DNA of 64,000 bases from Escherichia coli (GTDB lineage Bacteria > Pseudomonadota > Gammaproteobacteria > Enterobacterales > Enterobacteriaceae): the NCBI RefSeq assembly GCF_016903815.1, contig NZ_CP069973.1; one strand, given 5' to 3'. The notes below the pieces were generated by a model, which was given only the letters and a program-made list of their open reading frames with translations, was not told the origin of the DNA and did no database searches. The position numbers and the translations under genes were made by a program. Positions 893 to 64,000 of the stretch are shown in pieces; the first letter of the stretch is position 1, and every line of letters begins with the position of its first letter.

Positions 893-1098
893 TATATGAA
901 TAATATTCTTGCAATAATAGCTTTAAAGTATTGCATGCGGATAACTGAGGTGAAATTCCTGTTTTAGGATTATTGTCACTTTATTTTCCTGGTTAGACAT
1001 ATAGCTGACTGGTTTGTTTATTTGAATTATGATATTCATTAGTGCTACTGTTTTTTATAAAATAATTTTTGAATTGTTATTTTTTCACGGACGGAATT

Positions 1099-2004: not shown

Positions 2005-2006
2005 AA

Positions 2007-2034
2007 CCTGCGCCTGGCGGGATGCCAGGCGCAG
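2007..2034. terminator. Bidirectional rho-independent-like hairpin between the convergent LysR and adenosyltransferase genes
   Basis: cctgcgcctggc-gggat-gccaggcgcagg perfect GC-rich inverted repeat directly after the LysR stop (2002-2004) and after the end of the minus-strand operon (2038). Confidence 0.6.
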
Positions 2035-2037
2035 TTA

Positions 2038-2640
2038 TTACCAGTCGATACCCGGCTGGGCCTGAATGCCGTTATCAAAAGCATGTTTGACGGGGCGGAT
2101 TTCGCTGACCGTATCCGCCATTTTTAATATCTGACTGTGGCAACCGCGTCCGGTGACAATGACACTTTGTTGTGCCGGGCGGTTTTGCAGAGAAGCGATC
2201 ACTTCTTCGGTATCCAGATAATGGTAAGCCAGCATATAGGTCAGCTCATCAAGCACCACTAAGTCGTAACGCTTGTCAGCCAGCATCCGTTTGCTTTCCG
2301 ACCAGACCTCTTTCGCCGCGTCGATATCCGCTTGCCGGTTCTGTGTCTCCCAGGTAAAACCGGTTCCCATAATATGAAACTCAACCCCCAGCGGCTGGAG
2401 AAGGTTGTATTCGCCGTTGTCCCATTGCCCCTTGATGTACTGCGCAACCCCCACCGTTTTGCCATGACCCACCGCGCGCGTCACAGTACCAAACGCGGCA
2501 GTGGATTTCCCTTTGCCATTGCCGGTGAAAACAATCAAAATCCCTTTTTTCTCTATCGCCGCCGCGATGCGCGTATCGACCTGTTCCTTCAATTTCTGCT
2601 GGCGCTGCACATGCCGTTCAGTTGAAATTCGCGCTTCCAT
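2038..2640 (-). CDS. cob(I)alamin adenosyltransferase (BtuR/CobA/CobO family)
   Basis: 200 aa; P-loop GNGKGKST and overall similarity to BtuR/CobO; last gene of the B12-dependent glutamate mutase operon. Confidence 0.8.
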   Translation of the reverse strand: MEARISTERHVQRQQKLKEQVDTRIAAAIEKKGILIVFTGNGKGKSTAAFGTVTRAVGHGKTVGVAQYIKGQWDNGEYNLLQPLGVEFHIMGTGFTWETQNRQADIDAAKEVWSESKRMLADKRYDLVVLDELTYMLAYHYLDTEEVIASLQNRPAQQSVIVTGRGCHSQILKMADTVSEIRPVKHAFDNGIQAQPGIDW

Positions 2641-2649
2641 TCATTTTCC

Positions 2650-4302
2650 TTAATGTCCCGCAGGGCAACTGGCGCAGCGGTGTTGCTGCTCAAACTGACT
2701 AAAGAAATTATTGCCTTTATCATCTACCAGGATGAATGCGGGCAGATTTTCCACTTCCATCATCCACACCGCTTCCATACCCAGCTCCGGGTATTCCAGG
2801 CAACGCAGACTTTTGACATATTCTTGCGCCAGTAACGCAGCTGCACCGCCAATACTACCCAGATTGAAGCCACCATGTTTGTGACAGGCATCGGTGACCT
2901 GCTGGCTGCGGTTACCTTTCGATAACATCACCAGACTGCCGCCAGCCGCCTGGAAGGTATCGACATAACCGTCCATTCGACCGCCCGTGGTTGGACCCAG
3001 TGAACCGCAGGCCATGTTCTCCGGTGTTTTCGCCGGGCCAGCGTAATAGACAATATGATGCTTCAGGTAATCCGGCATCGGTTCGCCGCTATCCAGCCGC
3101 GCTTTTATTTTGGCGTGGGCGATATCGCGCGCCACTACGATGGGACCATTTAACGACACGCGGGTGCCTACCGGTAATCTGGCGAGATCCTGCATCACGT
3201 CACGCAACGGACGGTTTAGATCCAGTTGTACATGTGGCGCGTGATTTTCTTCCCGCAGTGAGGCTGGAATATATTGCCCCGGATTGTGTTCGAGTTTTTC
3301 CAGCCAGATACCGTGCTTGTTAATTTTTGCTTTGATATTGCGATCGGCAGAACAGGAGAGCGCCATAGCTATCGGGCAAGAGCCACCGTGACGCGGCAGA
3401 CGAATGACGCGAATATCATGAGCGAAATATTTACCCCCAAATTGCGCACCAATACCAAATTGCTGACTGGCCTCGAGCAACACTTTTTCCAGCTCAATAT
3501 CACGGAATGCTTGTCCCTGCTCGTTTCCGCTGGTGGGCAAATTGTCGTAATATTTCGTTGAGGCCAGCTTGGCAACTTTTAAGGTTTGATCGGCTGAAAG
3601 CCCTCCGACGACAAAGGCGATGTGGTAAGGCGGGCAGGCAGCGGTGCCCAGCGATTTCATTTTTTCGATTAAAAATGCGGTCAGTTTTTCTGGTTGCAAT
3701 AAGGATTTGGTTTCCTGATAAAGTGCGGCTTTATTGGCGGAGCCGCCCCCTTTATTAACACAGAGAAAATGGTACTCATTACCAGCGACAGCGCTGATAT
3801 CAATCTGCGCCGGGAGATTGGTTTGCGTATTGACTTCGGTATACATATCCAGCGGCGCATTTTGTGAAAAGCGCAGATTATTTTCCTGGAAAGTACTGTA
3901 AATGCCTTTGCTTAAGGCTTCAGCGTCGTTACCTCCCGTCCATATCTGTTGCCCTTTACTGGCAACAATAGTTGCGGTGCCGGTATCCTGACAGTTGGGT
4001 AATATCCCTTTTGCTGAGACTTCAGCATTACGTAATAACTGCAACGCAACGTATTTATCATTACTACTGGCCTGCGGATCGTTAAGAATGCTGGCGACCT
4101 GTTGCAAATGAGCGGAACGTAAGAAAAAAGAGGCTTCATAAAATGCCTGCCGGGCAAGCAGCGTTAATGCTTCAGGAGCGATTTTTATCACTTCTTCGCC
4201 GTCTAATTCCGTTACTGTAATATGTTGATCGCTAATTAATGTATATTCTGTACCGTCTTTATTTTGTAGAAACGGTTCTTGCCAGATAAATGGTTTGGAC
4301 AT
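2650..4302 (-). CDS. fumD: Class I (Fe-S) fumarate hydratase family protein, predicted mesaconase/fumarase
   Basis: 550 aa, full-length FumA/FumB-like protein with conserved Cys ligands; sits in a methylaspartate-pathway operon where mesaconate hydration is the required step. The fumD name is from memory of the literature, not verified. Confidence 0.8.
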
Positions 4303-4409
4303 ATTTCACTTTTCACCTTAAACGTTAGTGTTACTTAATTGCCGTCTAACTTCATGATCCGGCTTATAAAAATGCGTAGTCATTGGCTTCTGATTGCTTA
4401 AGATCCCCC

Positions 4410-5690
4410 TCAGGGCAGAGCAACGTTCGATTCATTGGGTTTTAATGCTTTACCCCGACAACCCTCGCCGAAATGTTCGCCTTCCCACCGACTCACCATC
4501 GCAGCGCCCATTGCGTTGCTCATGACGTTTGTCGCGGAACGCCCCATATCAAGGAACGGATCAACGCCCATCAGCAAGATCAGCCCCGCTTCCGGAATAT
4601 TGAACTGGTTGAGCGTGGCGGCGATAACCACCATTGAGGCGCGTGGTACGCCAGCCATTCCTTTCGAGGTCAACATCAGGATCAACAGCATGGTGATTTG
4701 CTCACCGATGGATAAATGGATATTGCAGGCCTGGGCGATGAAAACTGTGGCGAAGGAGCAGTAGGCCATTGATCCAACGAGATTAAATGAGTAGCCAATG
4801 GGTAAGACAAAGCTGGCAATTTTGGGGGAAACGCCAAATTGCTCCAGTTTTTCAAGCGTTCCCGGAAAAGCCGCTTCAGAACTGGATGTGGTAAATGCCA
4901 GCAGGGCGGGTTCCGAAAGGGCGCGGGTCAGGCGTCTGATGCAGGGGCCGACATAAACGATGGCCAGACCGATAAGCAGCACCCAAAGTAATAACATGGT
5001 GAAATAAAATTCACCCATAAAGATCCCGGCGCTCACCATAACTGCCAGTCCTCGTTCAGCAATCAATGCTGAAATAGCAGCGAATACGGTCAGGGGAGCG
5101 AAGAGCATGACGTAGCCAGTGAGCTTTAACATGGCATGTGCCAGCGAATCTAAGGCGTGAACGATGGCGCTGCCTTTCTCGCCAATCGCCGTCAGGCTAC
5201 AGCCGAGGAAAATTGAGAACACCACGATTTGCAAAATTTCATTGTGCGCCATGGCATCGACAATGCTGGTGGGGAAAGCATGCGAAATAAATACTTTTAG
5301 CGTAAAGGGTTCTGACGCGACCACTCCGGTGGTTTCGGCTCCGTGTGCAACAAAATTAATTCCTGTGCCTGGCATGAAGAAATTTACTGTTATCAAGCCT
5401 AAGGCAATTGACAGCAATGAGGCGCAAATAAATAAAAAGAGTGTTTTAGAAAAAATACGACCAAGGGCTTTGGCATCTCCCATTTTAGCTATACCTACCA
5501 CCAGGGTAGAGGCCACTAACGGAGCGATAATCATTTTTATCAGTCGTAAGAAAATCGTCGTGAATATCGATATTTCTTGCGCATAGAGTTTTGCGGTTTC
5601 CGGTGAAGCAGTGTTATTGAGCACTACGCCGATAATCACTCCAAGTACCAGCGCCAAAAGAATCATCGTGGTTAAACTTATTTTCTTCAT
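4410..5690 (-). CDS. Dicarboxylate/amino acid:cation symporter (DAACS, GltP/DctA-like), probable glutamate or C5-dicarboxylate transporter
   Basis: ORF 4410-5711; multiple TM segments and DAACS family similarity. Start trimmed to ATG 5690 (MKKISLTT), which is preceded by a GGAGGA ribosome-binding site. Confidence 0.8.
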   Translation of the reverse strand: MKKISLTTMILLALVLGVIIGVVLNNTASPETAKLYAQEISIFTTIFLRLIKMIIAPLVASTLVVGIAKMGDAKALGRIFSKTLFLFICASLLSIALGLITVNFFMPGTGINFVAHGAETTGVVASEPFTLKVFISHAFPTSIVDAMAHNEILQIVVFSIFLGCSLTAIGEKGSAIVHALDSLAHAMLKLTGYVMLFAPLTVFAAISALIAERGLAVMVSAGIFMGEFYFTMLLLWVLLIGLAIVYVGPCIRRLTRALSEPALLAFTTSSSEAAFPGTLEKLEQFGVSPKIASFVLPIGYSFNLVGSMAYCSFATVFIAQACNIHLSIGEQITMLLILMLTSKGMAGVPRASMVVIAATLNQFNIPEAGLILLMGVDPFLDMGRSATNVMSNAMGAAMVSRWEGEHFGEGCRGKALKPNESNVALP

Positions 5691-5850
5691 TTTTTCCTCC
5701 ATCAGGTGCACGGCGATAAATCAGAATCAGGAGAAGTAGATGCCTGAATAGAGATTCAGGCACCTACCTGCTATTACAACCTTACAAATAGCTGAAGTGT
5801 TGAACTGCAATAAGTGACGGGATGTCAGTTGGCTAAAAGTATTCGGATTT

Positions 5851-6168
5851 TTACAAATCGAAACTCATATTTAATAAAGGTGCATGTTGCTGTGCACCAT
5901 AGACATCATTGTCACCTACATTCCCGGAGATAATATCTCGTGGCATGACGATTTTTACTGCGTTAGAAGGATCAAACCAGACAATACGGTGAATAAAGTC
6001 AGGTTCAACATGATATAAGCGCGCAATCAGTTCTGGGGTTAATTGCCCTGATGATTTAACTCGCTCATAGTTTTCTTTCGTTTTAAATAAAATATCTAAA
6101 ACCAGTTCGTAAGGTCCGGCATTTTTCGAACGAATGACTTGCGCCAGTGAGACAATTGACTGTTTCAT
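5851..6168 (-). CDS. Small conserved protein of unknown function (DUF4387-like), partner of the upstream DUF1446 gene
   Basis: 105 aa ORF whose start overlaps the stop of the 456-aa ORF by 4 nt (translational coupling); family assignment is from memory. Confidence 0.6.
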   Translation of the reverse strand: MKQSIVSLAQVIRSKNAGPYELVLDILFKTKENYERVKSSGQLTPELIARLYHVEPDFIHRIVWFDPSNAVKIVMPRDIISGNVGDNDVYGAQQHAPLLNMSFDL

Positions 6169-7535
6169 GCCTGAACTCCTTCTGGCGTCACCTGTTCAAT
6201 ATGGAAATCAAAACGCAGAGCGTCGTTGGCTTCAATCAGGTGATATATGGAAAATTCGTATACTGGCCCGCCCTGGATATCAGAAGGGGAGAACGGGAAC
6301 GCCAGGTTGCCTGCGGTAGCGATGCGGTTTTCATAGCCGTAGTGCAGCATAGTAGAGCGCACCAGCGAGCAAACGCTGTTGGCAATCTCCTGGGTCGGCG
6401 CAACTACATCTAGGACAATCCCCAGCTCATGCCCGGCAGTTTGCATCGGTTCATGGTCGCCCATCACCCCGTTTTTGCCGTACAGGTGGAAATTGATGTG
6501 AATGCTGTCATCGTCGAGCGACAGGTTACGCGAAACGCTGGTTTTGACTTCATCGATGATTTTATCGATCCCGGCGATCATGATCGGGTCGCGCGTTCCG
6601 GCGATGGTCAGACAGCGGAAGCCCACCCGTCGCGCACCTTCCAGTTTCAGGGCATACGGCGTTTCTTCATGCTTAGAACCGCTGACGTACACTTCGCTGT
6701 CATTGACCGCTTTAAATGTGCAGCCTTTCAGGTTCAACACGCCGCCAGGTCCAGGCAGGAAGTAGGGATCGGATTTCTCATACAGTGTGTGTGCAGCCGC
6801 TGACGTTTCGGTAAATTTACGCTTCGGATTAAATGTCTTCAGCGTAAAGCCGTTGTCATCAATGATGCCCATCGCACAGTCAGAGCCTGAGCCGGGCGTT
6901 GCGGCGATTGCCGCGCATTCAAGGATTTTCCCACAATGCAGCGCCAGACCTTCATCAAAGCCTTGCATGATCGGAAGCGCAGCAAAGCAGGCCGGGTCGT
7001 AAGCGCGCCCGCCCAGCACCACTTGCGCGCCTTCTTTCAGCGCCTGCTGGAAGGGTTCGATGCCCATTTGCGCGACGATATACGTACTTTCGTCAATCGC
7101 GTCGTGGGTTAACGGCGGGACAAAATCCAGCGCCGTGATTTTGCCGTTATCCAGCGCCTGGTGGACGATGGCTTTGTCAACGTCTGCCGGGATCAGCGCC
7201 ATCGAGAACGAGAGGTGCTCTTCCCGGGCAATCTCATGAATTATTTCTCGGCACCACTCCAGGTGTGGTGCGGCACCAGAACCGCCAGCCGTTCCGATCA
7301 CCACCGGTATATTATTTTGCACGCCTGCGGTGATCATATAGCGCAGATCGCGCTTGACCCCTGCGCGATCGGTAAACGGTTTGCCTGCCCCGAGGTAGTG
7401 GGGGCCTGGATCGGAAGAGCCTGCATCAACGGCGATCAGATCGGGCGATTCTGCCATCGCTTTGCGGAAGCTCTCTTCCGGGAATCCATACCCGAGGATT
7501 GCCGTTGGCGATAAGACTTTAAAAGAACGAGCCAT
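6165..7535 (-). CDS. AtuA-like / DUF1446 family protein of unknown function
   Basis: 456 aa ORF, operon-internal between methylaspartate ammonia-lyase and the transporter; resembles the AtuA (acyclic terpene utilisation) DUF1446 family by length and N-terminal motif. No characterised catalytic function known to me. Confidence 0.6.
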   Translation of the reverse strand: MARSFKVLSPTAILGYGFPEESFRKAMAESPDLIAVDAGSSDPGPHYLGAGKPFTDRAGVKRDLRYMITAGVQNNIPVVIGTAGGSGAAPHLEWCREIIHEIAREEHLSFSMALIPADVDKAIVHQALDNGKITALDFVPPLTHDAIDESTYIVAQMGIEPFQQALKEGAQVVLGGRAYDPACFAALPIMQGFDEGLALHCGKILECAAIAATPGSGSDCAMGIIDDNGFTLKTFNPKRKFTETSAAAHTLYEKSDPYFLPGPGGVLNLKGCTFKAVNDSEVYVSGSKHEETPYALKLEGARRVGFRCLTIAGTRDPIMIAGIDKIIDEVKTSVSRNLSLDDDSIHINFHLYGKNGVMGDHEPMQTAGHELGIVLDVVAPTQEIANSVCSLVRSTMLHYGYENRIATAGNLAFPFSPSDIQGGPVYEFSIYHLIEANDALRFDFHIEQVTPEGVQA

Positions 7536-7538
7536 TTG

Positions 7539-8780
7539 TTAATCCTTAGCCTGCAACAGCGCGATAGTACGATTCATTTCGTTGAAGACGATATCGAGGC
7601 CTTCGTCAAAGCCCATCCCTGGTTTTACCAGCATACGCATGGGGCGAGCGGCAAGGGCGACGTGGACACAGGTGCGGGCACTGACATCAGTTTCATTGCA
7701 GGTGCCGCCCTGGTACGCTTCCATGTTGTGGCTGTTGCAATAAAGAACTGCATCGACGATGTTGTGAATACTGCCCAGATCCGGGGTTTTGATTTGCACC
7801 ATGTGGCAACTGGCGGCATCGGTGAAATCAACAATATCCTGGTAGGTGTTACACCATTCATCGGCCACTAGTTTCACGCCGGAACCGAGGCGCGTCAGCT
7901 CTTTGGTAATCGCGGTCAGCAGGCGAATTTGATCGGGCTTGTTACCGGCATCGACCGGACCTTCAATGTAGAGCGGCAGGCCTTGCGCTTCTTTTTCCAG
8001 GCTGGCGATGTATTGCGCACAGCGAAGCGGATCCATATCGAAGATCAGACCGATAGTGCCGTATACATCGATGTGCAGGGTAGGGTGGTAGCGTGCGCTG
8101 GTGCGCTTGCTCAGAATACGATCCGACAGCCAGCGGACATATTCGCGCAGTTTTTCACCTTTAAAGCCCAGTTTCTCTTCGACGTTATTAATCAGTGCAT
8201 GGGGCAGCACGTCGATGCCCTTAAGGATCATCTTATCGACGGCGATATATCGATCGTCGCCGCTCTGACCAAATAATGGAATGGATTCCGCCACGCGTGG
8301 CAACTGCCATTCATCACAGACCACTTCAGTTTTCAGACGGCCGGTTGCCAGCGCGGTAGCATCAAGCAGCGCCTGTGATAATCCGTAGCGCACGGCGGTA
8401 TGCAGCAAGTTGCCGTCAATACGCAATTTGTCGAAGAAACGGGCATTCGGCAGGAAAGTATCCACATCGCGGCCTACCAGTAATGGCTTGATATGGTCGT
8501 TGAGGAACGGAATAAAGTGCTCCGCGAGGAACAGTGGATCGCGACCACCTGCCCCGGAATACTGTACGGCAGCACAGTCACCTACGGCGACCGCGCCGTT
8601 TTCCAGAATCAACTGTACCGATACGCACTCCCCGGCCTGACGTACGGCGTTAAACCCCTGTGTTACTGGCTCCCCGGTATAAAAAAAACCGTCGTGACCC
8701 GCTCCGTTTTTTATCGCCTGCTGGTCATCGAAATAGAATGAGGAGTAGCCAGCGGTAAAAAGGGCCTGTTTTATTTTCAT
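7539..8780 (-). CDS. 3-methylaspartate ammonia-lyase (methylaspartase, enolase superfamily)
   Basis: 413 aa, classic methylaspartase length and enolase-superfamily architecture; immediately downstream of the glutamate mutase genes. Confidence 0.85.
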   Translation of the reverse strand: MKIKQALFTAGYSSFYFDDQQAIKNGAGHDGFFYTGEPVTQGFNAVRQAGECVSVQLILENGAVAVGDCAAVQYSGAGGRDPLFLAEHFIPFLNDHIKPLLVGRDVDTFLPNARFFDKLRIDGNLLHTAVRYGLSQALLDATALATGRLKTEVVCDEWQLPRVAESIPLFGQSGDDRYIAVDKMILKGIDVLPHALINNVEEKLGFKGEKLREYVRWLSDRILSKRTSARYHPTLHIDVYGTIGLIFDMDPLRCAQYIASLEKEAQGLPLYIEGPVDAGNKPDQIRLLTAITKELTRLGSGVKLVADEWCNTYQDIVDFTDAASCHMVQIKTPDLGSIHNIVDAVLYCNSHNMEAYQGGTCNETDVSARTCVHVALAARPMRMLVKPGMGFDEGLDIVFNEMNRTIALLQAKD

Positions 8781-10225
8781 TATGGTCTTCCTATTAATTT
8801 ACTGTGGGATACAGCATTGATGTCATCTACAACCATCTGGAATGTCGGTTGGCGTCCTTCAAAGCGTGCGCGTTCCGCAACGTAATCGTGGTGGAGGTCG
8901 AGAATATCTTTTGGCAATGGAACGGCTCCGGCTTCCAGTACGCGTATCGCGCCGGTGTTGTCACGGACCGGAAGAATTTTGCCCGCGTTACACGCGGCTG
9001 GTGCAAATGGCACATCCAGTACGCCCGCTTCAAATGCCAGCACCGTACCGCGCGCAATATCACCATTACCCAGTTCGAACACTTTATTCAGTACCGCGCG
9101 AACCTCGCTCTTAATCAGTTCAATTTCCAGTTCAACCGCAGGGCACGGCGGGAATTTCTGCTCATTGACCATGTTGAGCATCTGGCGGGAGGCTTTCAGC
9201 CCCTGAATGTTGGCAGCGGCAGTCGGGATTCCCCAGGCTTCGTGAGGGCTTTTGGTGATGACTTTGGTGGCACCAGACATCCCCGCGACGGCTGCACCCC
9301 AGGAGATAATGGCGAACGCTTTCGATTCGTCTTCCGGAAAGCCGCCCATCCACTGGTGAAATACGGTACTTAATTCATAGTCGGTATAGCCATAGTTCTG
9401 AAAGTATTCGTGTGCAAGTTCACGCAGAGACTGGATCGCCGCGACATCCTGCGTCAGGCTGCCGACCTGTCCATAACCAACGGTGATAGATTTCACACCC
9501 TGTTCCAGCGCCAGTAATCCTTCGATTATCGCGATAGAGTGCGAGATAAACGGCGGGATCAGCGTACCCGTTAGTGGGCCAAATGGTTCGCGGTTGATGC
9601 GGATCCCGTGTTCTTCATACATCCCCATTAAACGGTCGCAGTACTGCCAGTCGCGGATCGATTTTTCCAGCGTTACGCGCTTGGCATACGGAATATTGTA
9701 GGAAATGCCGCCGCCTTCATAACTGGTAAAGCCGCTGGCCATCGAGATTTCAGCCAGCAGACGCGCATCTGGCGTGCCGTGGCGGATCTGTAGCGGTTTT
9801 TGCAGAGTTTCGGTGAGGCGACGGCAAGCTGCGACGCCGTGGTTAACGACCGGTAAACCGTTCAGTTTAGAGGTTCCGGCTTCGATGGATTTTTTAATCC
9901 CTACAGCAGCTTCTTCGTACCGATTCAGACGGGTATATGCATCGATGGTGCTCGGCAGCAGATCGCACTCTTCTTGTAGTGTTTTCAGTAGTTCGATGTG
10001 TTCGTCCATCAGCGCCACGCCTGCGCGCGGTTGGCTAAGAGTTTTACCTTCCTTGTCTGCTTTCAGCAGGGCAAGAGAGAAGCGTTTATGCTCAGGAATG
10101 GTTTGTTGGTATTTAACGCCATCTTCAAAGTTTTCAACATCCTTGCCGGTTTCCCAGGTTTTCAATACCTGTTGCCGCTCGGTCATGAATTCGTTATGGG
10201 TTAATTTCTTATTTCGAAGTTCCAT
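8780..10225 (-). CDS. Glutamate mutase epsilon (large catalytic) subunit, MutE/GlmE
   Basis: 481 aa, TIM-barrel large subunit length; operon context with the S and L components. Confidence 0.85.
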   Translation of the reverse strand: MELRNKKLTHNEFMTERQQVLKTWETGKDVENFEDGVKYQQTIPEHKRFSLALLKADKEGKTLSQPRAGVALMDEHIELLKTLQEECDLLPSTIDAYTRLNRYEEAAVGIKKSIEAGTSKLNGLPVVNHGVAACRRLTETLQKPLQIRHGTPDARLLAEISMASGFTSYEGGGISYNIPYAKRVTLEKSIRDWQYCDRLMGMYEEHGIRINREPFGPLTGTLIPPFISHSIAIIEGLLALEQGVKSITVGYGQVGSLTQDVAAIQSLRELAHEYFQNYGYTDYELSTVFHQWMGGFPEDESKAFAIISWGAAVAGMSGATKVITKSPHEAWGIPTAAANIQGLKASRQMLNMVNEQKFPPCPAVELEIELIKSEVRAVLNKVFELGNGDIARGTVLAFEAGVLDVPFAPAACNAGKILPVRDNTGAIRVLEAGAVPLPKDILDLHHDYVAERARFEGRQPTFQMVVDDINAVSHSKLIGRP

Positions 10226-10243
10226 TGATTGCAGCCTTAATTG

Positions 10244-11632
10244 TTATAGGGTTAAGCATTGAATACTGGTGCGCGCGGCGGCCAGTGGATCGACTCTGGC
10301 GACGTTTGCCAGCAGTGGTAATAGCCCCCGGGAATCGCGGTAATATTCAAATTCGGTCGGTAAGAGAATGCGTTTACCGTCGTCGTTTAACTCGCGGTAT
10401 TTCAACCAGTGATGCATATCGAACTGACTGGCACGCGAGAGCCATCCGCCGGAACCCACGACTTTACGCACGGTTGTCAGGTCACGTCCCATCTGTAAAT
10501 CGACATTGCCGACGCAGGTGCAGACCTCTTTTTTGGTGCCCGCATGTCTTTCGGTGGCATAACCCACACACAGTCCGGCCAGGACGGTATCGAAATATTT
10601 TTCTTCTGCATTCGCGGGTAAGTAGTCGGGATGAGCGACTAGATGACGGAGGTAATGATAAAAAGCGTCCAGCTGTGCGGGTTGCTGAGCAAAATTCACA
10701 TTGACTAACTCTTTCGCACTTTCACCAACCACCATTGCCGAGACGCGCATTCCCAGATCGCCTTCCACCGTCCGTTTCACGAAGGGTTCCGGTACGCCAT
10801 GTAAAACAGTGTCGGGCGAGAGCGTGTTGGCACAGGCTGAATAGACATCGGTGGTTGCGCCGCCCATGTCGATCAGCATGAACTCCTTCCAGCTGTGATC
10901 GACGTTACTGATTGCCTTAACCAGTTCAAAGACCGTCCATGGTGTCGGCATTGGTTCTTCGCCTGTTTTATCAACAATGACATCCAGCCCTTTCCCTTTA
11001 ACGATGCGTTTAAGGAATATGTCGCAGATAGCCTGGCGTGCAGCTAAAGGGTTCGGATGGTCAAGATCGGGCAGAACGTTGTCGACGATGGTCAGGTCTT
11101 TATGCCCTAGGATCTCCTGCACCTCGTCCTGAATATCCCGGTTTCCGGCATAAATAATGGCGCAGTCGAGTTTGGATTCTGCCAGCACACGGGCGTTATT
11201 CAGGCCGTAGCTTTCTTCTCCGCCGTCGGTGCCGCCGGTGAACAAGAGAATATCGGGCTGCGTTTCTTCCAGTGCCTGGATATCACGGCGGTTCAGCTTG
11301 TAGGCGTAATATTGCGCAATTTTAGCCCCCGCAGAGTGAGCGGTTACTTTCGCGGTTTCCAGGGTGATAGAAGGCACCAATCCCATTGCGGCAACCGCCA
11401 GCCCACCTTTGGCAGAGGAGGAATACTTCAATGTAACCTCACCGCTGTTAAACAGGGGGAGGGCATTATCTACGTTTAACACCAGGTTCAGGCTGGAGAA
11501 AAACCCCTTCGCCAGATGATGGGTGGTGGTTGGGGTCAGTACGTGGTTAACCAACGTTAACGCGTCCCCCTCCCGGGCGAAGAGGGCTGCTTTGGTCCAC
11601 GTCGAACCAATATCGACAGAGACGATTTGCAT
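10244..11632 (-). CDS. Glutamate mutase L component (MutL/GlmL, reactivating chaperone-like ATPase)
   Basis: 462 aa ORF between the S and E subunits, the typical glmS-glmL-glmE order; ASKHA-like N-terminus ([18 protein letters not shown]). Confidence 0.8.
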   Translation of the reverse strand: MQIVSVDIGSTWTKAALFAREGDALTLVNHVLTPTTTHHLAKGFFSSLNLVLNVDNALPLFNSGEVTLKYSSSAKGGLAVAAMGLVPSITLETAKVTAHSAGAKIAQYYAYKLNRRDIQALEETQPDILLFTGGTDGGEESYGLNNARVLAESKLDCAIIYAGNRDIQDEVQEILGHKDLTIVDNVLPDLDHPNPLAARQAICDIFLKRIVKGKGLDVIVDKTGEEPMPTPWTVFELVKAISNVDHSWKEFMLIDMGGATTDVYSACANTLSPDTVLHGVPEPFVKRTVEGDLGMRVSAMVVGESAKELVNVNFAQQPAQLDAFYHYLRHLVAHPDYLPANAEEKYFDTVLAGLCVGYATERHAGTKKEVCTCVGNVDLQMGRDLTTVRKVVGSGGWLSRASQFDMHHWLKYRELNDDGKRILLPTEFEYYRDSRGLLPLLANVARVDPLAAARTSIQCLTL

Positions 11633-12081
11633 CAGATTGCCTCTTCAAGAATGCGAGTATCAACGTTATGACGTTGGTTGATATCGTGGGCCATCAGCTG
11701 ACAAACATCTTCTAAGTCATGACTTGGGGAAAAGACGCGATCAAATCCCATCTCTTTGAACTTGGTTTCCACGTCAGCGAAGTCATGTTTTCCGACCACC
11801 AGGTTACCGCCCACATAGAGCAGGATGTTACCCAGCCCACGCTCGATGCAGCGTTCGCGCATGCCCAGACAATCGATATCGCCATGCCCATAGATAGAGG
11901 AGACGACAATCGCGTCAGCACCAGTTTCAATGGCAGCATCAATATATTCGTCCTGGCTGACCATTACGCCCAGATTAATAACTCTGAAGTCATGGTTGCT
12001 AAAAACGCGGTCCAGAACTTTATTGCCTACTGCATGGCAGTCCGCGCCAATAACGCCAATCACAAGTGTTGCTTTCTTCAT
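11632..12081 (-). CDS. Glutamate mutase sigma (B12-binding) subunit, MutS/GlmS
   Basis: ORF 11632-12144; cobalamin-binding DxHxxG motif ([11 protein letters not shown]). Start trimmed to ATG 12081 ([12 protein letters not shown]), preceded by AAGGA, giving 149 aa. Confidence 0.8.
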
Positions 12082-12627
12082 GGGTAATCCTTTGTAAGAC
12101 AGAGAGTAAAATAAGTTACACACGTCGTATTTATGGCCGCTCATAACGGCACAGGTTTAATATCACAGGAGTGTCTTTATCTGACCGTAATGTTGCAATT
12201 GATCTATTTTCAAAATGTCTTTCGGGAAATGATTGTTTAAAGTGTGTTTTCAAATTCTCATTTTAATTCAGTGTGTTATGTCAACTAATGTCATGAATGT
12301 TAAATTTTTAAAATTAACTTGATTTGATGTATTGAGATAATTGTGATCAACTTCTAATTTGCATTTTTGTGACGTGGCTTTAGCCATGAGTAAATGCATT
12401 TCATAAAAGTTAAGTCGAATTTCACTGCAATTCATCTCTGCTTAATGTAAAAATAATGTTGAAAATAACAAATAATTAATGATTCATGCGAATTATGACC
12501 TTTGTTAGCTCTTTTGATTTTTCGTAAAAAAGAAAAGTACATGAAGGTGCTACCAGTACGAGTAACGTTAATCAAAAGTTTTATTACGTCTGGCAATAAC
12601 GCAGGCCATTTTCGCGACTGGGTGGAT

Positions 12628-13050
12628 TTAATCAGTATAATCCTCATACAATAGGTCAGGATTTACTGAACCGTTAACGGGGATTTGGTGTTGAAATTTA
12701 GAAATGGCGGAGTCAATTAATGAAGACAATATCGGAAAAATGACAGTGTCAGAATTAATTTCAATTAATCCTTCTCGTTGTTGACCAAAAAAGATATTTA
12801 TCTTGATTTCATTTGTACTACGGCAATCAATATGCAGTAATTTTTGATCGCTGAGATTTTCTGTTTCATAAATGTTTTTGGCGATAGTCGGATGTATTGA
12901 TGCCAGACATCTGCTCAGATAAGCCAGATCCTTTAGGGAACACCCCGCTGAGTAGAGGATGTCAGAGAATTTTTGTGTGTCAACTGTTGTCTCTGAAGCG
13001 TATGTTGCATTGACAGGAAGGGTGTTGAAAGAGATTTGAGATGGGATCAT
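12628..13050 (-). CDS. Hypothetical protein, no recognisable family (orphan, AT-rich)
   Basis: 140 aa ORF in a strongly AT-rich block, co-directional with and 80 bp downstream of the 314-aa ORF; no motif I can assign. Confidence 0.5.
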   Translation of the reverse strand: MIPSQISFNTLPVNATYASETTVDTQKFSDILYSAGCSLKDLAYLSRCLASIHPTIAKNIYETENLSDQKLLHIDCRSTNEIKINIFFGQQREGLIEINSDTVIFPILSSLIDSAISKFQHQIPVNGSVNPDLLYEDYTD

Positions 13051-13130
13051 TATTTAAATCTTTCCGTGAGTAATAAAAATTAATCCCCGGGCATTGTTTG
13101 GCAATATTTGCCACAGGGAATATATAAAAA

Positions 13131-14075
13131 TTAAAGTATTTGATTGGCATCGGTTAACTGATCAATAACCAGTGCCAGATTGGTAAACATTTTGAAAAAG
13201 CGATACTGGCTCGGAATATCTCTTTCAAAGACGAAACATTCAATGTCATTGTTTGAAAAATAAAGGACTAGTGTTGCTGATTCGTCAGGAAAAATATGGA
13301 AATATATCTGGTTACCAGAAGGAGGATAGTCCAGAAGAAGGGTATCTTTGCCCGTCACATACCTGTTGTGGTCGTGGATGCTGCGCTCACACTTCATCAG
13401 AGGTGTCATGATACTCATGTATTCATCTGATGTTAATATATTAAAATCACCATCCATTTTAAAGAAACGATAAAGTAACAGTACATCCTCTTGCGTAACC
13501 GGTTCGTTTGTTTTTAGAGGGAAATAAGTGGGAACCAGAAGATGAGGTTCTAATCTATTTTGTTGAGCGCTATAACTAAATTTGAACATAAATTCCGGAT
13601 CGCTCATCAATTGAGCGACATAATTATGCCTGGCTTCAAAAATTTTAACTTTTATCAGGTTAAATAAGTCTGTTTCGTCATCCTGTATTAAAAGACATTG
13701 ACCATAGCAGCCAGGCTTTTTTTCATTATAAGCAGAAACGGTTATTCTGTCAGGAGTGTCAACGTTATATCCAAAAGCCAGATAGTGACCTTCCTCATCG
13801 AGATTTGTTTCCAGGTTATTTAAATTCATCACATGAAGTGTTTGCAATGCTGATTCAATGAGCTGTTGACTCTCTGAGGTAAATGTTTCGCGCTGCGTTG
13901 TATAAAGTGTATCGATTCCAACGACTATCCGATGTGGATCAAGGATGGCGGCAATCATCTTTATTACCTGCACAGTCATGGGTGATGTCATTGATTCTTT
14001 ATCTGTTTTTAGAGGATCATTAGATGGCCAACCTGAGAAGCGATTGACAGCAGAACTGATATTATCAGGACTCAT
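13131..14075 (-). CDS. Hypothetical protein, no recognisable family (orphan, AT-rich)
   Basis: 314 aa ORF, uninterrupted, in AT-rich DNA between the glutamate operon and the cydA regulatory region; codon usage atypical for the E. coli core. Confidence 0.55.
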   Translation of the reverse strand: MSPDNISSAVNRFSGWPSNDPLKTDKESMTSPMTVQVIKMIAAILDPHRIVVGIDTLYTTQRETFTSESQQLIESALQTLHVMNLNNLETNLDEEGHYLAFGYNVDTPDRITVSAYNEKKPGCYGQCLLIQDDETDLFNLIKVKIFEARHNYVAQLMSDPEFMFKFSYSAQQNRLEPHLLVPTYFPLKTNEPVTQEDVLLLYRFFKMDGDFNILTSDEYMSIMTPLMKCERSIHDHNRYVTGKDTLLLDYPPSGNQIYFHIFPDESATLVLYFSNNDIECFVFERDIPSQYRFFKMFTNLALVIDQLTDANQIL

Positions 14076-14880
14076 AGCAGCAACCTCATTGTAATCAAGC
14101 GAGGCGCTGAGCGTACTCGGCTATAGAAAAACTAACTTGCAAAAATCGCTCATTTTTCATTTATCAGGCGAAAGTGGTCTCTGTTCACTCAGAAACAATC
14201 ACTCCCGCTAAGTCATACCTGTTTCATCGATACATTTAAGTGATTATTACTAATGAAACAATAACATAACGGGCTTACGGCCGGTGCTCATAAAGGCAAC
14301 AATCAATTAACTTTGATAAAAATATGTTATGTAAAATAGCAACAAATTGGCTAATCTAATCAATTGGTATTATAAAAAGTGGATAGGGCGGTTCTGTTAA
14401 ATAAAACACTGGTTTTTTATCTATACCTTTTCATTGTAATAATTGTGTTGCATAAATATTTCACAATAAATTAACAATAAAATCACCAATGATCTATGGT
14501 TTATACATAATTAACATATTTGGTTGGTTTTGATATAAATCAATTTTTAATTCTTGAAAAAAATCTGCAAAACACGATAAATTGTCGTAGATCAAATTGG
14601 TGAGATCGTGACAATTTCGCTATAAATTGATCACTGTCGAAAAATGCAAATTTGCTCAATAAAAACCTGTTTATTGTAAGGATTTTGCGGCGTAATATAA
14701 TTACGGGATCAATTTGGTTTATTCATTAACATATTTGTAACTTTTTTATCATTGTCTTTTCCTCTTTTGATGAAATGGCAACGATAGAGGCGAGCAAATA
14801 ATTTTGTATTGGGGCATGCGTGTGACCCTTTCTAACGGGGTTCACTCTCGGAGTCTTCATGCGATGAGCAAGGAGTCATG
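14076..14880 (+). promoter_or_regulatory. Long AT-rich cydA upstream control region (multiple promoters, ArcA/FNR/H-NS regulated in K-12)
   Basis: About 800 bp non-coding AT-rich DNA directly upstream of cydA, as expected for the cydAB control region; individual sites not resolved by eye. Confidence 0.6.
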
Positions 14881-22498: not shown

Positions 22499-23044
<546 letters not shown>

Positions 23045-23053
23045 GAGAATTGC

Positions 23054-23845
23054 ATGAGCAGTAACTTCAGACATCAACTATTGAGTCTGTCGTTACTGGT
23101 TGGTATAGCGGCCCCCTGGGCCGCTTTTGCTCAGGCACCAATCAGTAGTGTCGGCTCAGGCTCGGTCGAAGACCGCGTCACTCAACTTGAGCGTATTTCA
23201 AATGCTCACAGCCAGCTTTTAACCCAACTCCAGCAACAACTCTCTGATAATCAATCCGATATTGATTCCCTGCGTGGCCAGATTCAGGAAAATCAGTATC
23301 AACTGAATCAGGTCGTGGAGCGGCAAAAGCAGATCCTGTTGCAGATCGACAGCCTCAGCAGCGGTGGTGCAGCGGCGCAATCAACCAGCGGTGATCAAAG
23401 CGGTGCGGCGGCATCAACGACGCCGACAGCTGATGCTGGTACTGCGAATGCTGGCGCGCCGGTGAAAAGCGGCGATGCAAACACGGATTACAATGCAGCA
23501 ATTGCGCTGGTGCAGGATAAATCCCGCCAGGATGACGCAATGGTGGCATTTCAGAATTTCATCAAAAATTACCCTGATTCAACTTACCTGCCAAACGCCA
23601 ATTATTGGCTGGGTCAGTTAAACTACAACAAGGGTAAAAAAGATGATGCGGCGTACTATTTTGCTTCGGTAGTAAAAAACTATCCGAAGTCACCAAAGGC
23701 TGCAGATGCGATGTTTAAAGTCGGCGTCATCATGCAGGACAAAGGTGACACCGCAAAAGCGAAAGCCGTATACCAGCAGGTTATCAGTAAATACCCTGGT
23801 ACTGATGGCGCTAAACAGGCACAAAAACGTCTGAACGCGATGTAA
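23054..23845 (+). CDS. cpoB: Cell division coordinator CpoB (YbgF), TPR protein
   Basis: 263 aa, signal peptide, coiled-coil and C-terminal TPR region; last gene of the tol-pal cluster. Confidence 0.95.
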   Translation: MSSNFRHQLLSLSLLVGIAAPWAAFAQAPISSVGSGSVEDRVTQLERISNAHSQLLTQLQQQLSDNQSDIDSLRGQIQENQYQLNQVVERQKQILLQIDSLSSGGAAAQSTSGDQSGAAASTTPTADAGTANAGAPVKSGDANTDYNAAIALVQDKSRQDDAMVAFQNFIKNYPDSTYLPNANYWLGQLNYNKGKKDDAAYYFASVVKNYPKSPKAADAMFKVGVIMQDKGDTAKAKAVYQQVISKYPGTDGAKQAQKRLNAM

Positions 23846-24009: not shown

Positions 24010-24085
24010 GGGTCGTTAGCTCAGTTGGTAGAGCAGTTGACTTTTAATCAATTGGTCGCAGGTTCGAATCCTGCACGACCCACCA
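24010..24085 (+). tRNA. lysT: tRNA-Lys (anticodon UUU)
   Basis: GGGTCGTTAGCTCAGTTGGTAGAGCAGTTGACTTTTAATCAATTGGTCGCAGGTTCGAATCCTGCACGACCCACCA, 76 nt with encoded CCA. Confidence 0.97.
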
Positions 24086-24220
24086 ATCGCTAAGGTGGAA
24101 GCGGTAGTAAAACGTGAAGGATAACGTTGCGTCAGCAACGGCCCGAAGGGCGAGACGAAGTCGAGTCATCCTGCACGACCCACCACTAACCTAGTTAGTT
24201 GTAGTATCCAGCGTAGTATC

Positions 24221-24296
24221 GGGTGATTAGCTCAGCTGGGAGAGCACCTCCCTTACAAGGAGGGGGTCGGCGGTTCGATCCCGTCATCACCCACCA
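24221..24296 (+). tRNA. valT: tRNA-Val (anticodon UAC)
   Basis: GGGTGATTAGCTCAGCTGGGAGAGCACCTCCCTTACAAGGAGGGGGTCGGCGGTTCGATCCCGTCATCACCCACCA. Confidence 0.97.
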
Positions 24297-24298
24297 CC

Positions 24299-24374
24299 GG
24301 GTCGTTAGCTCAGTTGGTAGAGCAGTTGACTTTTAATCAATTGGTCGCAGGTTCGAATCCTGCACGACCCACCA
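24299..24374 (+). tRNA. lysW: tRNA-Lys (UUU)
   Basis: Identical to the tRNA-Lys at 24010; 2 nt after the preceding tRNA-Val. Confidence 0.97.
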
Positions 24375-24425
24375 CTAATTACGGTGGGTTCGGTGGAAGT
24401 AGTTTGTAGTATCCAGCGCAGTATC

Positions 24426-24501
24426 GGGTGATTAGCTCAGCTGGGAGAGCACCTCCCTTACAAGGAGGGGGTCGGCGGTTCGATCCCGTCATCACCCACC
24501 A
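24426..24501 (+). tRNA. valZ: tRNA-Val (UAC)
   Basis: Identical to the tRNA-Val at 24221. Confidence 0.97.
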
Positions 24502-24504
24502 CTC

Positions 24505-24580
24505 GGGTCGTTAGCTCAGTTGGTAGAGCAGTTGACTTTTAATCAATTGGTCGCAGGTTCGAATCCTGCACGACCCACCA
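24505..24580 (+). tRNA. lysY: tRNA-Lys (UUU)
   Basis: Identical tRNA-Lys sequence. Confidence 0.97.
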
Positions 24581-24726
24581 ATTTTAACATCAAACTCAGA
24601 TGTTAAGCGTGAAGGATAACGTTGCGCCGGCAACGGCCCGTAGGGCGAGCGAAGCGAGTCATCCTGCACGACCTACCAATTTTAAAGATTGGTTCCGAGT
24701 AGAAATCTTTCAGGTAACACCCGTAT

Positions 24727-24802
24727 GGGTCGTTAGCTCAGTTGGTAGAGCAGTTGACTTTTAATCAATTGGTCGCAGGTTCGAATCCTGCACGACCCAC
24801 CA
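24727..24802 (+). tRNA. lysZ: tRNA-Lys (UUU)
   Basis: Identical tRNA-Lys sequence. Confidence 0.97.
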
Positions 24803-24934
24803 ATTTAAAGGTGGTTACTGGTAGAGAACGTGAAGGATAACGTTGCGTTAGCAACGGCCCGAAGGGCGAGACGAAGTCGAGTCATCTTGCACGACCCACC
24901 ATCCTGAATGATTAAAGCAGCATAATCCCGCAAG

Positions 24935-25010
24935 GGGTCGTTAGCTCAGTTGGTAGAGCAGTTGACTTTTAATCAATTGGTCGCAGGTTCGAATCCTGCA
25001 CGACCCACCA
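24935..25010 (+). tRNA. lysQ: tRNA-Lys (UUU)
   Basis: Identical tRNA-Lys sequence; last tRNA of the operon. Confidence 0.97.
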
Positions 25011-25014
25011 ATGT

Positions 25015-25042
25015 AAAAAAGCGCCCTAAAGGCGCTTTTTTG
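25015..25042 (+). terminator. Rho-independent terminator of the lysT tRNA operon
   Basis: aaaaaagcgccctaaaggcgcttttttg directly after lysQ; an exact second copy lies at 25161-25187. Confidence 0.85.
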
Positions 25043-25353
25043 CTATCTGCGATACTCAAAGATTCGAACCTGCAGCAGGTTTGAGTTGAGCGCAGCGAAA
25101 CAACGGAGCCGCTCGCGGCGACGGCCCGAAGGGCGAGCGAAGCGAGTCATCCTGCACGACCCACCAATGTAAAAAAGCGCCCTAAAGGCGCTTTTTTGCT
25201 ATCAGGCATCTCTCAATTTCAATTCTTAACCCTGATGACATACTCCGCGCTTGCTGCGTAAACAACTCTACGTCGGAGGAATAAGACGCAAAGTGTGGCA
25301 TTCGTCATCTCATACGTAATTCGAGTGACTTTTCCCCACCATTCGACTATCTT

Positions 25354-59939: not shown

Positions 59940-60092
59940 CATTTACGCGCTAGTATCGGCTTAACCACTAAACACTCTAGCCTCTGCACCTGGGTCAACT
60001 GATACGGTGCTTTGGCCGTGACAATGCTCGTAAAGATTGCCACCAGGGCGAAGGAAGAAATGACTTCGCCTCCCGTATCTGGAAAGGTGTAC
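59940..60092 (+). ncRNA. Molybdenum cofactor (Moco) riboswitch in the moaA 5' leader
   Basis: About 150-nt structured leader directly upstream of the moaA start with the conserved ...gccuccc... segment adjacent to the RBS; position matches the described moaABCDE leader. Boundaries approximate. Confidence 0.6.
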
Positions 60093-61082
60093 ATGGCTTC
60101 ACAACTGACTGATGCATTTGCGCGTAAGTTTTACTACTTGCGCCTGTCGATTACTGATGTGTGTAACTTTCGTTGCACCTACTGCCTGCCGGATGGCTAC
60201 AAACCGAGCGGCGTCACCAATAAAGGCTTTCTTACCGTCGATGAAATTCGCCGGGTTACGCGCGCCTTTGCCAGTCTGGGCACCGAAAAAGTGCGCCTGA
60301 CAGGCGGTGAGCCGTCTTTACGCCGCGACTTTACCGATATCATCGCCGCTGTGCGGGAAAACGACGCTATCCGCCAGATTGCGGTCACCACCAATGGTTA
60401 CCGTCTGGAACGCGATGTGGCGAACTGGCGCGATGCGGGACTTACTGGCATCAACGTCAGCGTTGATAGCCTTGACGCTCGCCAGTTTCATGCCATTACC
60501 GGGCAGGATAAATTCAACCAGGTCATGGCAGGGATCGATGCTGCATTTGAGGCCGGTTTTGAGAAGGTCAAAGTCAATACCGTGCTGATGCGTGATGTTA
60601 ATCATCATCAGCTCGACACCTTTCTGAACTGGATCCAGCATCGCCCTATCCAGCTGCGTTTCATCGAATTGATGGAAACGGGCGAGGGCAGCGAGCTCTT
60701 CCGTAAGCATCACATCTCTGGTCAGGTTCTGCGTGACGAGCTACTGCGTCGCGGCTGGATCCACCAATTACGTCAACGCAGCGACGGTCCCGCGCAAGTC
60801 TTTTGTCATCCGGATTACGCCGGAGAGATTGGCCTTATCATGCCGTATGAAAAAGACTTCTGCGCCACTTGCAACCGCCTGCGCGTTTCCTCCATTGGTA
60901 AACTCCATCTCTGCCTGTTTGGTGAAGGCGGCGTTAACCTGCGCGATCTGCTGGAAGACGATACCCAGCAACAGGCGCTGGAAGCGCGTATTTCAGCGGC
61001 GCTGCGGGAGAAGAAACAGACCCATTTCCTGCACCAAAACAACACCGGTATTACGCAAAACTTATCGTACATTGGCGGCTAA
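60093..61082 (+). CDS. moaA: GTP 3',8-cyclase (radical SAM)
   Basis: [31 protein letters not shown]...; ORF track extends 27 codons upstream (60012), across the riboswitch. Confidence 0.97.
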
Positions 61083-62932: not shown

Positions 62933-63637
62933 ATGGACAGATTCCCACGTTCTGATTCAATTGTACAACTCCGGGCTGGCTTGCAAACTTATATGGCGCA
63001 AGTCTATGGCTGGATGACCGTTGGCTTGTTGCTGACCGCATTTGTTGCCTGGTATGCGGCTAATTCCGCGGCCGTGATGGAGCTGTTGTTCACTAACCGT
63101 GTCTTTTTAATCGGTCTGATCATCGCGCAATTAGCATTGGTTATTGTGTTATCAGCGATGATTCAAAAGCTGAGCGCAGGTGTAACGACGATGCTCTTTA
63201 TGCTTTATTCGGCGCTGACGGGTCTTACGCTTTCCAGTATTTTCATTGTCTATACCGCTGCTTCTATCGCCAGTACTTTCGTCGTTACTGCCGGGATGTT
63301 TGGCGCAATGAGCCTGTACGGTTACACCACGAAGCGCGATCTAAGCGGCTTTGGCAATATGCTGTTTATGGCGTTAATCGGCATTGTGCTGGCATCGCTG
63401 GTCAACTTCTGGCTGAAAAGCGAAGCATTGATGTGGGCAGTCACCTACATCAGCGTGATTGTCTTTGTCGGATTGACGGCGTATGACACTCAGAAATTGA
63501 AAAATATGGGTGAGCAGATTGATACCCGCGACACGTCGAACCTGCGCAAATATTCCATTCTTGGCGCGTTAACCTTGTATCTGGACTTCATCAACCTGTT
63601 CCTGATGTTGCTGCGGATCTTCGGCAACCGCCGTTAA
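62933..63637 (+). CDS. ybhL: BAX inhibitor-1/YccA-family inner membrane protein YbhL
   Basis: MDRFPRSDSIVQLRAGLQTYMAQVYGWMTVGLL...; start trimmed from ORF 62852. Confidence 0.92.
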   Translation: MDRFPRSDSIVQLRAGLQTYMAQVYGWMTVGLLLTAFVAWYAANSAAVMELLFTNRVFLIGLIIAQLALVIVLSAMIQKLSAGVTTMLFMLYSALTGLTLSSIFIVYTAASIASTFVVTAGMFGAMSLYGYTTKRDLSGFGNMLFMALIGIVLASLVNFWLKSEALMWAVTYISVIVFVGLTAYDTQKLKNMGEQIDTRDTSNLRKYSILGALTLYLDFINLFLMLLRIFGNRR

Positions 63638-63654
63638 TTCTTTTTCACCATCAA

Positions 63655-63682
63655 TATCCCGGCCATGTGTCGGGATTTTTTT
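63655..63682 (+). terminator. Rho-independent terminator after ybhL
   Basis: atcccgg-ccatgtgt-cgggattttttt. Confidence 0.7.
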
Positions 63683-63684
63683 GT

Positions 63685-64000
63685 GCACAGAAAACCCCCA
63701 GCTAGGCTGGGGGTTCCGGAAAGCTTTCAGCTTTGAGCCAGTTATTAAAACCCCTTTTGATTTGTTAAAACACCTTGCGGTCTGGCAACTGCAAGTGTCA
63801 AACAAGAAATCAAAAGGGGGTCCCAATGGGGAACGAAAAGAGCTTAGCGCACACCCGATGGAACTGTAAATATCACATAGTTTTTGCGCCAAAATACCGA
63901 AGACAGGTGTTCTACAGAGAGAAGCGTAGAGCAATAGGCAGTATTTTGAGAAAGCTGTGTGAGTGGAAAAGCGTACGGATTCTGGAAGCTGAATGCTGTG
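63685..64000 (+). mobile_element. tnpA: IS200/IS605-family insertion sequence, left end plus 5' part of tnpA (continues beyond window end)
   Basis: Terminal hairpin aaaacccccagc-tagg-ctgggggtt at 63691-63715; a second inverted repeat (63751-63765 with 63803-63820) that would sequester the aaaggggg RBS; ORF from ATG 63826 translating MGNEKSLAHTRWNCKYHIVFAPKYRRQVFYREKRRAIGSILRKLCEWKSVRILEAEC, the conserved N-terminus of IS200 Y1 (HUH) transposases. Left boundary approximate. Confidence 0.8.

Follow-up and report, generated by a model that had tools for sequence, protein, structure and literature searches.

The left end of an IS200C insertion sequence directly behind the ybhL terminator of Escherichia coli

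Genetic context and left end of the element

The DNA analysed (64,000 nucleotides of contig NZ_CP069973.1 from the Escherichia coli assembly GCF_016903815.1, hereafter called the window) ends with the genes moaABCDE followed by ybhL. The latter (62933–63637, + strand), the upstream neighbour of the element described below, encodes a protein of the Bax inhibitor-1/YccA family (Pfam Bax1-I, 210 bits) and is annotated as ybhL in both E. coli strain 7/2 and K-12. Its intrinsic terminator (63656–63682, + strand) consists of an 8-bp stem-loop (63656–63676) and a T7 tract (63676–63682), as found by a terminator scan and a DNA fold. This terminator is the target of the insertion and was left intact, the same sequence being present in the empty sites of K-12 and of two closer relatives that lack the insertion sequence (L126 and L127).

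An earlier note, made from the letters alone, had placed an IS200-family element directly 3' of this terminator. It was right, as the T7 run ends at 63682 and the insertion sequence begins at 63683. The start that it gave, 63685, lies within 2 nt of the exact one, which is obtained from the comparison with empty sites and is itself ambiguous by up to 3 T. The left tip of the element (GTGCACAGAA, 63683–63692, + strand), delimited by comparing the occupied site with the empty one and identical in two other E. coli copies (L123 and L124), occupies the 10 nt that precede a hairpin with a perfect 10-bp stem and a 3-nt loop (AACCCCCAGC-TAG-GCTGGGGGTT, 63693–63715, + strand). This left-end hairpin folds in silico, corresponds to positions 1–23 of an Rfam model (see below) and covers nt 11–33 of the element. 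In the IS200 of Salmonella, the equivalent structure (nts 12–34) terminates transcription in both directions, independently of Rho, and thereby keeps read-in transcription out (PMC4513863). By extension from IS608, it is probably also the subterminal structure to which TnpA binds on single-stranded DNA.

Two further structures lie between this hairpin and the transposase gene. A small 6-bp hairpin (63720–63734, + strand), predicted by RNA folding and paired in the Rfam consensus, is located near the transcription start of tnpA, which was reported at about nt 40 of the insertion sequence (PMC4513863). It is followed by a large stem-loop of the 5'UTR (63751–63819, + strand, nt 69–137 of the element against nts 69–138 in PMC4513863), which is supported by the RNA fold (z = -4.5) and by the Rfam structure. 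Its 13-bp lower stem pairs CCCCUUUUGAUUU with AAAUCAAAAGGGG and would thereby sequester the Shine-Dalgarno sequence of tnpA (AAGGGGGT, 63814–63821, + strand), which was read from the sequence and is identical to the one quoted for Salmonella (PMC4513863). In the predicted fold, six of the eight bases of this AAGGGGGU motif, located 5 nt before the ATG at 63826 (nt 144 of the element), are buried in the stem. The 168-nt leader RNA as a whole folds at -64.7 kcal/mol (z = -4.5), a value that none of 200 shuffled sequences reaches. Both the strong hairpin after the ybhL terminator and an inverted repeat occluding the ribosome binding site of the transposase, which had been noticed before, are thus found again, the latter in the predicted fold.

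The Rfam model RF01405 (STnc490) matches the leader from end to end (63693–63816; 146 bits for a gathering score of 56, E = 1e-31). Considering this full-length match and the 100% identity to annotated IS200C copies, the left-end features described here are not due to chance. A second Rfam hit, to ncr1175 of Bacillus (19.7 bits, E = 0.79), was dismissed, as it reflects two adjacent hairpins only. No promoter was found by a sigma-70 scan of positions 63400–64000, which fits the published account of the tnpA promoter as weak and undefined.

The region complementary to the antisense RNA art200 is placed at 63747–63836 (- strand) by transfer of coordinates from the published map (PMC4513863). In this map, the 5' ends of art200, an RNA of about 90 nt, are at nts 153/154 of the insertion sequence, i.e. 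at 63835/63836 on the minus strand of the window. In the literature, STnc490/art200 designates a 90-nt RNA antisense to the 5'UTR of tnpA (PMC4513863). The RF01405 match lies on the tnpA-sense strand (63693–63816) and includes the left-end terminator hairpin, and no minus-strand match to this model was obtained at E <= 1. It is thus apparently the sense leader, and not the antisense RNA, that is modelled in Rfam.

The tnpA gene and the complete element

The last 175 nucleotides of the window (63826–64000, + strand) carry the first 58 codons, plus one base, of a gene encoding a 152-aa Y1 HUH transposase, which is cut by the window end. Its 58-aa N-terminus matches Pfam Y1_Tnp (E = 1.1e-10, 42 bits for a cutoff of 23) and NCBIfam transpos_IS200 (NF033573; E = 6.5e-14, 52.3 bits), so that the open reading frame indeed begins with the conserved N-terminus of IS200 transposases, as had been claimed. 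The second score is just below the whole-protein cutoff of 55 bits because only 58 aa are included in the window. At the nucleotide level, positions 63640–64000 are 100% identical to many loci of complete E. coli genomes annotated as 'IS200/IS605-like element IS200C family transposase', and the part of the window end that belongs to the insertion sequence has matches in 3,730 of the 5,426 genomes. The name IS200C used here is that of the NCBI annotation.

Only the first 318 nt of the element are inside the window, and what lies further to the right (HUH motif, catalytic tyrosine, right end and neighbouring downstream genes) was seen in near-identical genomes only. One of them, that of E. coli strain 7/2 (NZ_CP023820.1), differs from the window by a single mismatch over the first 50 kb (position 14448, intergenic, upstream of cydA) and by none over the last 6,361 nt; over its last 25 kb, the window matches strain 7/2, and more than 20 further genomes, at 100% identity. 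In strain 7/2 (locus L001), the element is 712 bp long and carries one uninterrupted 459-nt open reading frame, encoding the 152-aa TnpA, and no tnpB. The earlier note had expected a full element of about 0.7 kb, and in this genome both this length and the right end are thus recovered.

The complete TnpA of strain 7/2 (annotated WP_000526135.1) scores 130.7 bits against Y1_Tnp and 147.7 bits against transpos_IS200, and its HUH motif (H61-I-H63) and Y125, the residue mutated to obtain a catalytically dead TnpA (PMC4513863), are intact. It is related to the Y1 transposases of solved structure 2EC2, 2F5G, 2A6M (ISHp608; E = 4e-19) and 2XM3 (E = 2e-16). The partial frame of the window hence continues, in this genome, into a full HUH/Y1 protein, and the sequence is that of IS200C, at a site that is empty in K-12, rather than that of a native conserved E. 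coli gene.

The tips of the element in strain 7/2 (GTGCAC… and …TATTT) are not inverted repeats; instead, a subterminal hairpin is found at each end. The one on the right, CCTCCGGC-TAT-GCCGGAGG, is located 10 nt from the right tip and is followed by ATATTTATTT. Beyond position 64000, about 394 further bases of IS200C, ending with …GGAGGATATTTATTT and followed by CTTACTAAAAACG, are expected from these data. The element is classed in the IS200 group of the IS200/IS605 family, with tnpA as its single gene, and is an insertion sequence of a kind already known, located at a site that is specific to one lineage. Every testable defining feature of the IS200 group is present, on the evidence of the sequences compared.

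Insertion site and distribution

In K-12 MG1655, the empty ybhL–ybhM site reads …GTCGGGATTTTTTT|CTTACTAAAAACG…. The empty sites of K-12, L126 and L127 all read ...GGGATTTTTTT|CTTAC..., and the insertion sequence, where present, lies between the T7 run and CTTAC. Removing the 712 bp from strain 7/2 gives the sequence of L126 with five substitutions and no indel over 388 bp. No duplicated target bases need to be invoked and no host bases are deleted when the occupied site is compared with the three empty ones. This exact restoration of the empty site shows that the event was a simple insertion, in which no target bases were duplicated and no host DNA was lost, which is the behaviour expected of the IS200/IS605 family.

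Searches of the 5,426 complete E. coli genomes with the left junction (400-bp probe), the right junction (400-bp probe) and the whole 1,112-bp unit each retrieve 96 genomes, and in most others the two flanks match as a contiguous 400-bp empty site. The statement that no IS200 lies here in K-12 and that the insertion is strain-specific is borne out by the empty K-12 site and by these counts. Since two of the 96 carriers, WCHEC96200 and WCHEC4533, were published as ST405 strains of phylogroup D (PMC5762679, PMC9037040), the window probably comes from a lineage that includes ST405 strains. The ybhL::IS200C junction could be used as a PCR or in-silico marker for this lineage.

In strain 7/2, the insertion is followed by ybhM-ybhN-clsB-ybhP-ybhQ-ybhR in the same order as in K-12, so that the downstream gene order, for which a check had been proposed, is intact. 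The ybhM gene (L001:6915-7304, about 915–1300 bases past the window end) is a 390-nt allele, compared with 714 nt in K-12. The difference is an in-frame internal deletion of 324 bp between two short similar stretches (…CAGGGCTGGTCCTGG…), and, of the Bax1-I domain, the product of the short allele has kept the C-terminal part alone (34.5 bits for a cutoff of 34.1). The possibility that the insertion sequence caused this deletion was rejected, as the same short allele is found in IS-free genomes (RIVM_C037134 and APEC E14033). As both the terminator of ybhL and the region of about 160 bp upstream of ybhM are intact, little effect would be expected on either neighbour, and the insertion is probably neutral for the host.

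Taken together, these data point, with a probability that we put at about 95%, to positions 63683–64000 of the window being the left part (318 bp) of an IS200C that is complete (712 bp) and was inserted, by a simple event, behind the ybhL terminator in one lineage. One could instead regard the copy as what is left of a decayed or truncated element (a pseudogene or a solo left end), considering that 318 bp are all that is visible in the window and that truncated IS200C fragments occur in E. coli, for example as partial matches on plasmids (H151–H154). This would be most surprising: the part included in the window does not differ at any position from full copies, strain 7/2, which was inspected directly, has the full 712 bp with an uninterrupted 152-aa tnpA, and in the other 95 carriers the match extends over 80% or more of the 1,112-bp unit.

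The suggestion, made in the earlier note, that the element may define the boundary of a rearranged or accessory region beyond the window fares hardly better. IS copies often mediate rearrangements, about 17–31 IS200C left-end matches are found per chromosome among the listed best-matching genomes, and ybhM is 324 bp shorter than in K-12, all of which could be taken as signs that the element marks the edge of a rearrangement, a deletion or an accessory island. However, the same count (96 genomes) is obtained for the right junction, for the left junction and for the whole unit, taking out the 712 bp restores the empty site exactly, the K-12 order of genes from ybhM to ybhR is kept and the short ybhM allele is also carried by the IS-free L126 and L127, so that an edge of this kind is very improbable. 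A complete, simply inserted IS200C at this site matters little beyond annotation, where it amounts to a known insertion sequence correctly identified at a position specific to one lineage, but the ybhL copy provides a clean example of an IS200 placed behind a host terminator.

Association of IS200-group copies with terminators

An exact scan for the 21-mer of the left-end hairpin in contigs representing one genome per species retrieved at least 120 loci from diverse bacteria. The matches listed include named hosts such as Yersinia pestis (IS1541), Vibrio, Brenneria, Edwardsiella, Pluralibacter, Budvicia and Dickeya, as well as metagenome bins assigned to Oxalobacter, Mailhella/Desulfovibrio, Bacillota, Peptococcaceae, Elusimicrobiaceae and Saccharibacteria. 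Many of the matches in metagenome-assembled genomes (L003–L076) lie within about 100–200 nt of contig ends, which fits assembly breaks at a multicopy insertion sequence. The occurrence of an identical 21-mer across Bacillota, Desulfobacterota, Elusimicrobiota and Saccharibacteria suggests either a very wide horizontal spread of this subgroup of IS200 elements or binning artefacts.

The left flanks of these loci were compared by minimum-free-energy scoring of the 36 nt that end 4 nt before the tip of the element, with three kinds of control sites. Among the matches listed, a folding energy of -8 kcal/mol is reached or surpassed by 98% of the 121 distinct left flanks (median -16.8), against 26% of random, 18% of T-rich and 20.5% of intergenic T-rich control sites from the same loci (Mann-Whitney p = 2e-68). 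The same 121 flanks have T at a frequency of 83–97% at positions -6, -5, -4, -2 and -1. The feature common to the listed flanks is thus a hairpin followed by a run of T, with constant register and orientation, and not a fixed short word. This feature extends over Enterobacterales, Vibrio and several metagenome bins of anaerobes. The spacing measured between the foot of the hairpin and the tip of the element is a smear of 0–9 nt, from which a sharp distance cannot be derived, as A-runs located upstream often pair with the T-run. A first detector, which required perfect stems and classed 64 of 118 flanks as terminator-like, was replaced, since it undercounted imperfect stems.

The same arrangement is seen within E. 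coli, where two other IS200C copies lie directly behind the terminators of uhpT and pqqU. That some copies might have carried the ybhL terminator along with them, as unit matches starting 25 nt to the left of the element might suggest (H107–H109), was considered and rejected: the flanks in question are different host terminators (those of uhpT and pqqU) that share a stem of the CCCGGC…GCCGGG type. In an ST38 genome, ten IS200C copies were listed as flanked by TTTT or AAAA (PMC6963479). In Y. pestis, tandem copies of IS1541 are found (L078, L079 and L081), in which the left end of one copy directly follows the right end of the preceding one, which shows that the element can use its own right end as a target. 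As the right end of IS1541 is a hairpin with a T-rich tail, the preferred target resembles the right end of the element itself.

On this comparison of flanks, the position directly behind ybhL is not accidental, IS200-group copies being found almost exclusively behind a hairpin and a T-run. The association could nevertheless arise by two routes. Terminators could simply be places where insertions do no harm, so that the survival of harmless insertions rather than a choice of target would account for the pattern; the fixed register and the single orientation, however, argue for a real target choice and not only for such survival. An active targeting of terminators on single-stranded DNA by IS200-group transposases, combined with a burst in IS200C copy number in the lineage studied here, is a proposal for and against which we would weigh the chances equally. 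If it is true, the terminator would mimic the right end of the element, i.e. a hairpin followed by ATATTTATTT, and the ybhL copy would be one of more than 120 such events and part of a real burst of a supposedly near-immobile element. The pattern of a hairpin plus a T-run is mechanistically suggestive for target choice by the Y1 transposases of the IS200 group.

The association is already partly described. For an explicit description of terminator targeting by IS200/IS1541, only a preprint of 2025–26 was found in the literature, and an earlier one may exist in older papers.

IS200 has the reputation of transposing very rarely. The listed carriers of the ybhL insertion have 17–31 IS200C left-end matches per chromosome; among the E. 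coli genomes with any match, the median is 1 and the maximum 35. A lineage-specific expansion of IS200C is indicated.

A proposed model for transposition and silencing

From work on IS200 and IS608, the transposition of the element can be pictured in the following way. The element would move as a single DNA strand: a dimeric transposase of the HUH/tyrosine type would recognise the subterminal hairpins and excise the top strand as a circle, which would then be integrated, on the lagging-strand template, into a target that is itself single-stranded ('peel and paste'). The GC skew is positive across the whole window and tnpA is carried by the + strand. Hence, tnpA points in the direction of the replication fork, which places the active (top) strand on the lagging-strand template. 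An orientation bias with respect to replication was reported for IS200 (PMC3971601; PMC5027513), and the orientation of the ybhL copy, as a single case, is consistent with this bias rather than a proof of it.

Once inserted, the copy would be kept almost silent by four layers of control, whose roles are transferred from Salmonella IS200 as tested in E. coli. The left-end hairpin would act as a bidirectional terminator against read-through from ybhL, with the own terminator of ybhL as a backup. The promoter of tnpA would be weak, the stem-loop of the 5'UTR would hide the Shine-Dalgarno sequence and the antisense RNA art200 would act together with Hfq. The block of translation by the stem-loop, by art200 and by Hfq would in each case be independent.

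It might be asked whether the host benefits from the RNAs of this copy and has kept it for that reason, the processed 5' leader of tnpA and/or art200 acting as trans-acting sRNAs, in which case the locus would be a domesticated sRNA locus. A trans-regulatory sRNA role was reported for Salmonella IS200, and the leader matches the full length of the Rfam model that was built on this region. Against this, the insertion occurs in 96 genomes only, with an empty ybhL–ybhM site elsewhere, which fits a recent neutral insertion, and the presence of many identical copies per genome implies that no single one of them need be selected. Domestication thus seems unlikely, although less so than a remnant or the edge of a rearrangement, and an almost silent, probably neutral copy is the preferred reading.

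Relationship with other elements

The founding member of the group is the IS200 of Salmonella enterica, whose regulation was dissected by Ellis, Trussler and Haniford in 2015 (PMC4513863). The E. coli variant, named IS200C by NCBI, resembles it by its single tnpA of about 150 aa with Y125, by its region complementary to art200, by a leader that fits the Rfam model, by the same Shine-Dalgarno sequence and by nearly the same positions of the two main structures (11–33 and 69–137 here, 12–34 and 69–138 as published), this likeness being drawn from the published map. The two differ in size, 707 bp being quoted for the Salmonella element while the comparison with empty sites gives 712 bp here, with a boundary that is ambiguous by up to 3 T.

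IS1541 from Y. pestis and Y. pseudotuberculosis, which also belongs to the IS200 group, shares with IS200C an identical 21-nt core of the left-end hairpin, a near-identical left tip (GTGCCCAGAAAAC vs GTGCACAGAAAAC) and a near-identical right end (…CCGGAGGATATTTATT), and its copies are likewise found behind a hairpin and a T-run. It differs by its host, by a much higher copy number and by the presence of tandem copies in Y. pestis, none being in tandem at the ybhL site.

The mechanistic paradigms of the IS200/IS605 family, IS608 of Helicobacter pylori and ISDra2 of Deinococcus, encode a homologous Y1 HUH transposase and have, like the element described here, subterminal hairpins instead of inverted repeats, an orientation with replication and no target duplication. 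Unlike the elements of the IS200 group, which have tnpA only, they also carry tnpB. Moreover, their target is a defined tetra- or pentanucleotide (TTAC and TTGAT), on the 3' side of which they insert, whereas the flanks of IS200-group copies show a hairpin and a T-run instead.

The REP-associated tyrosine transposases (RAYTs), Y1 enzymes with a distant relationship to TnpA, work with extragenic hairpins of high GC content. The match of TnpA to the NCBIfam family REP_Tyr_transpos is weak (32 bits, far below the cutoff of 80), and a RAYT gene is a host gene, present in one copy with REPs on either side, and not a multicopy mobile element.

Other features of the window

Rfam searches also detected, elsewhere in the window, the CpoB/ybgF thermometer (22945–23083), a cluster of seven Lys/Val tRNAs with four RtT repeats (24010–25166) and the Moco riboswitch upstream of moaA (59961–60105). 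Upstream of cydA, positions 1–14100 carry a gene cluster that includes, according to the annotation of strain 7/2, genes for RtcB, a LysR regulator, cobO, a class I fumarate hydratase, a dicarboxylate symporter, a DUF4387 protein, an AtuA-family protein, a methylaspartate ammonia-lyase and the subunits E, L and S of a methylaspartate (glutamate) mutase. This cluster, which is presumably absent from K-12 at the corresponding position, looks like a glutamate/methylaspartate utilisation island.
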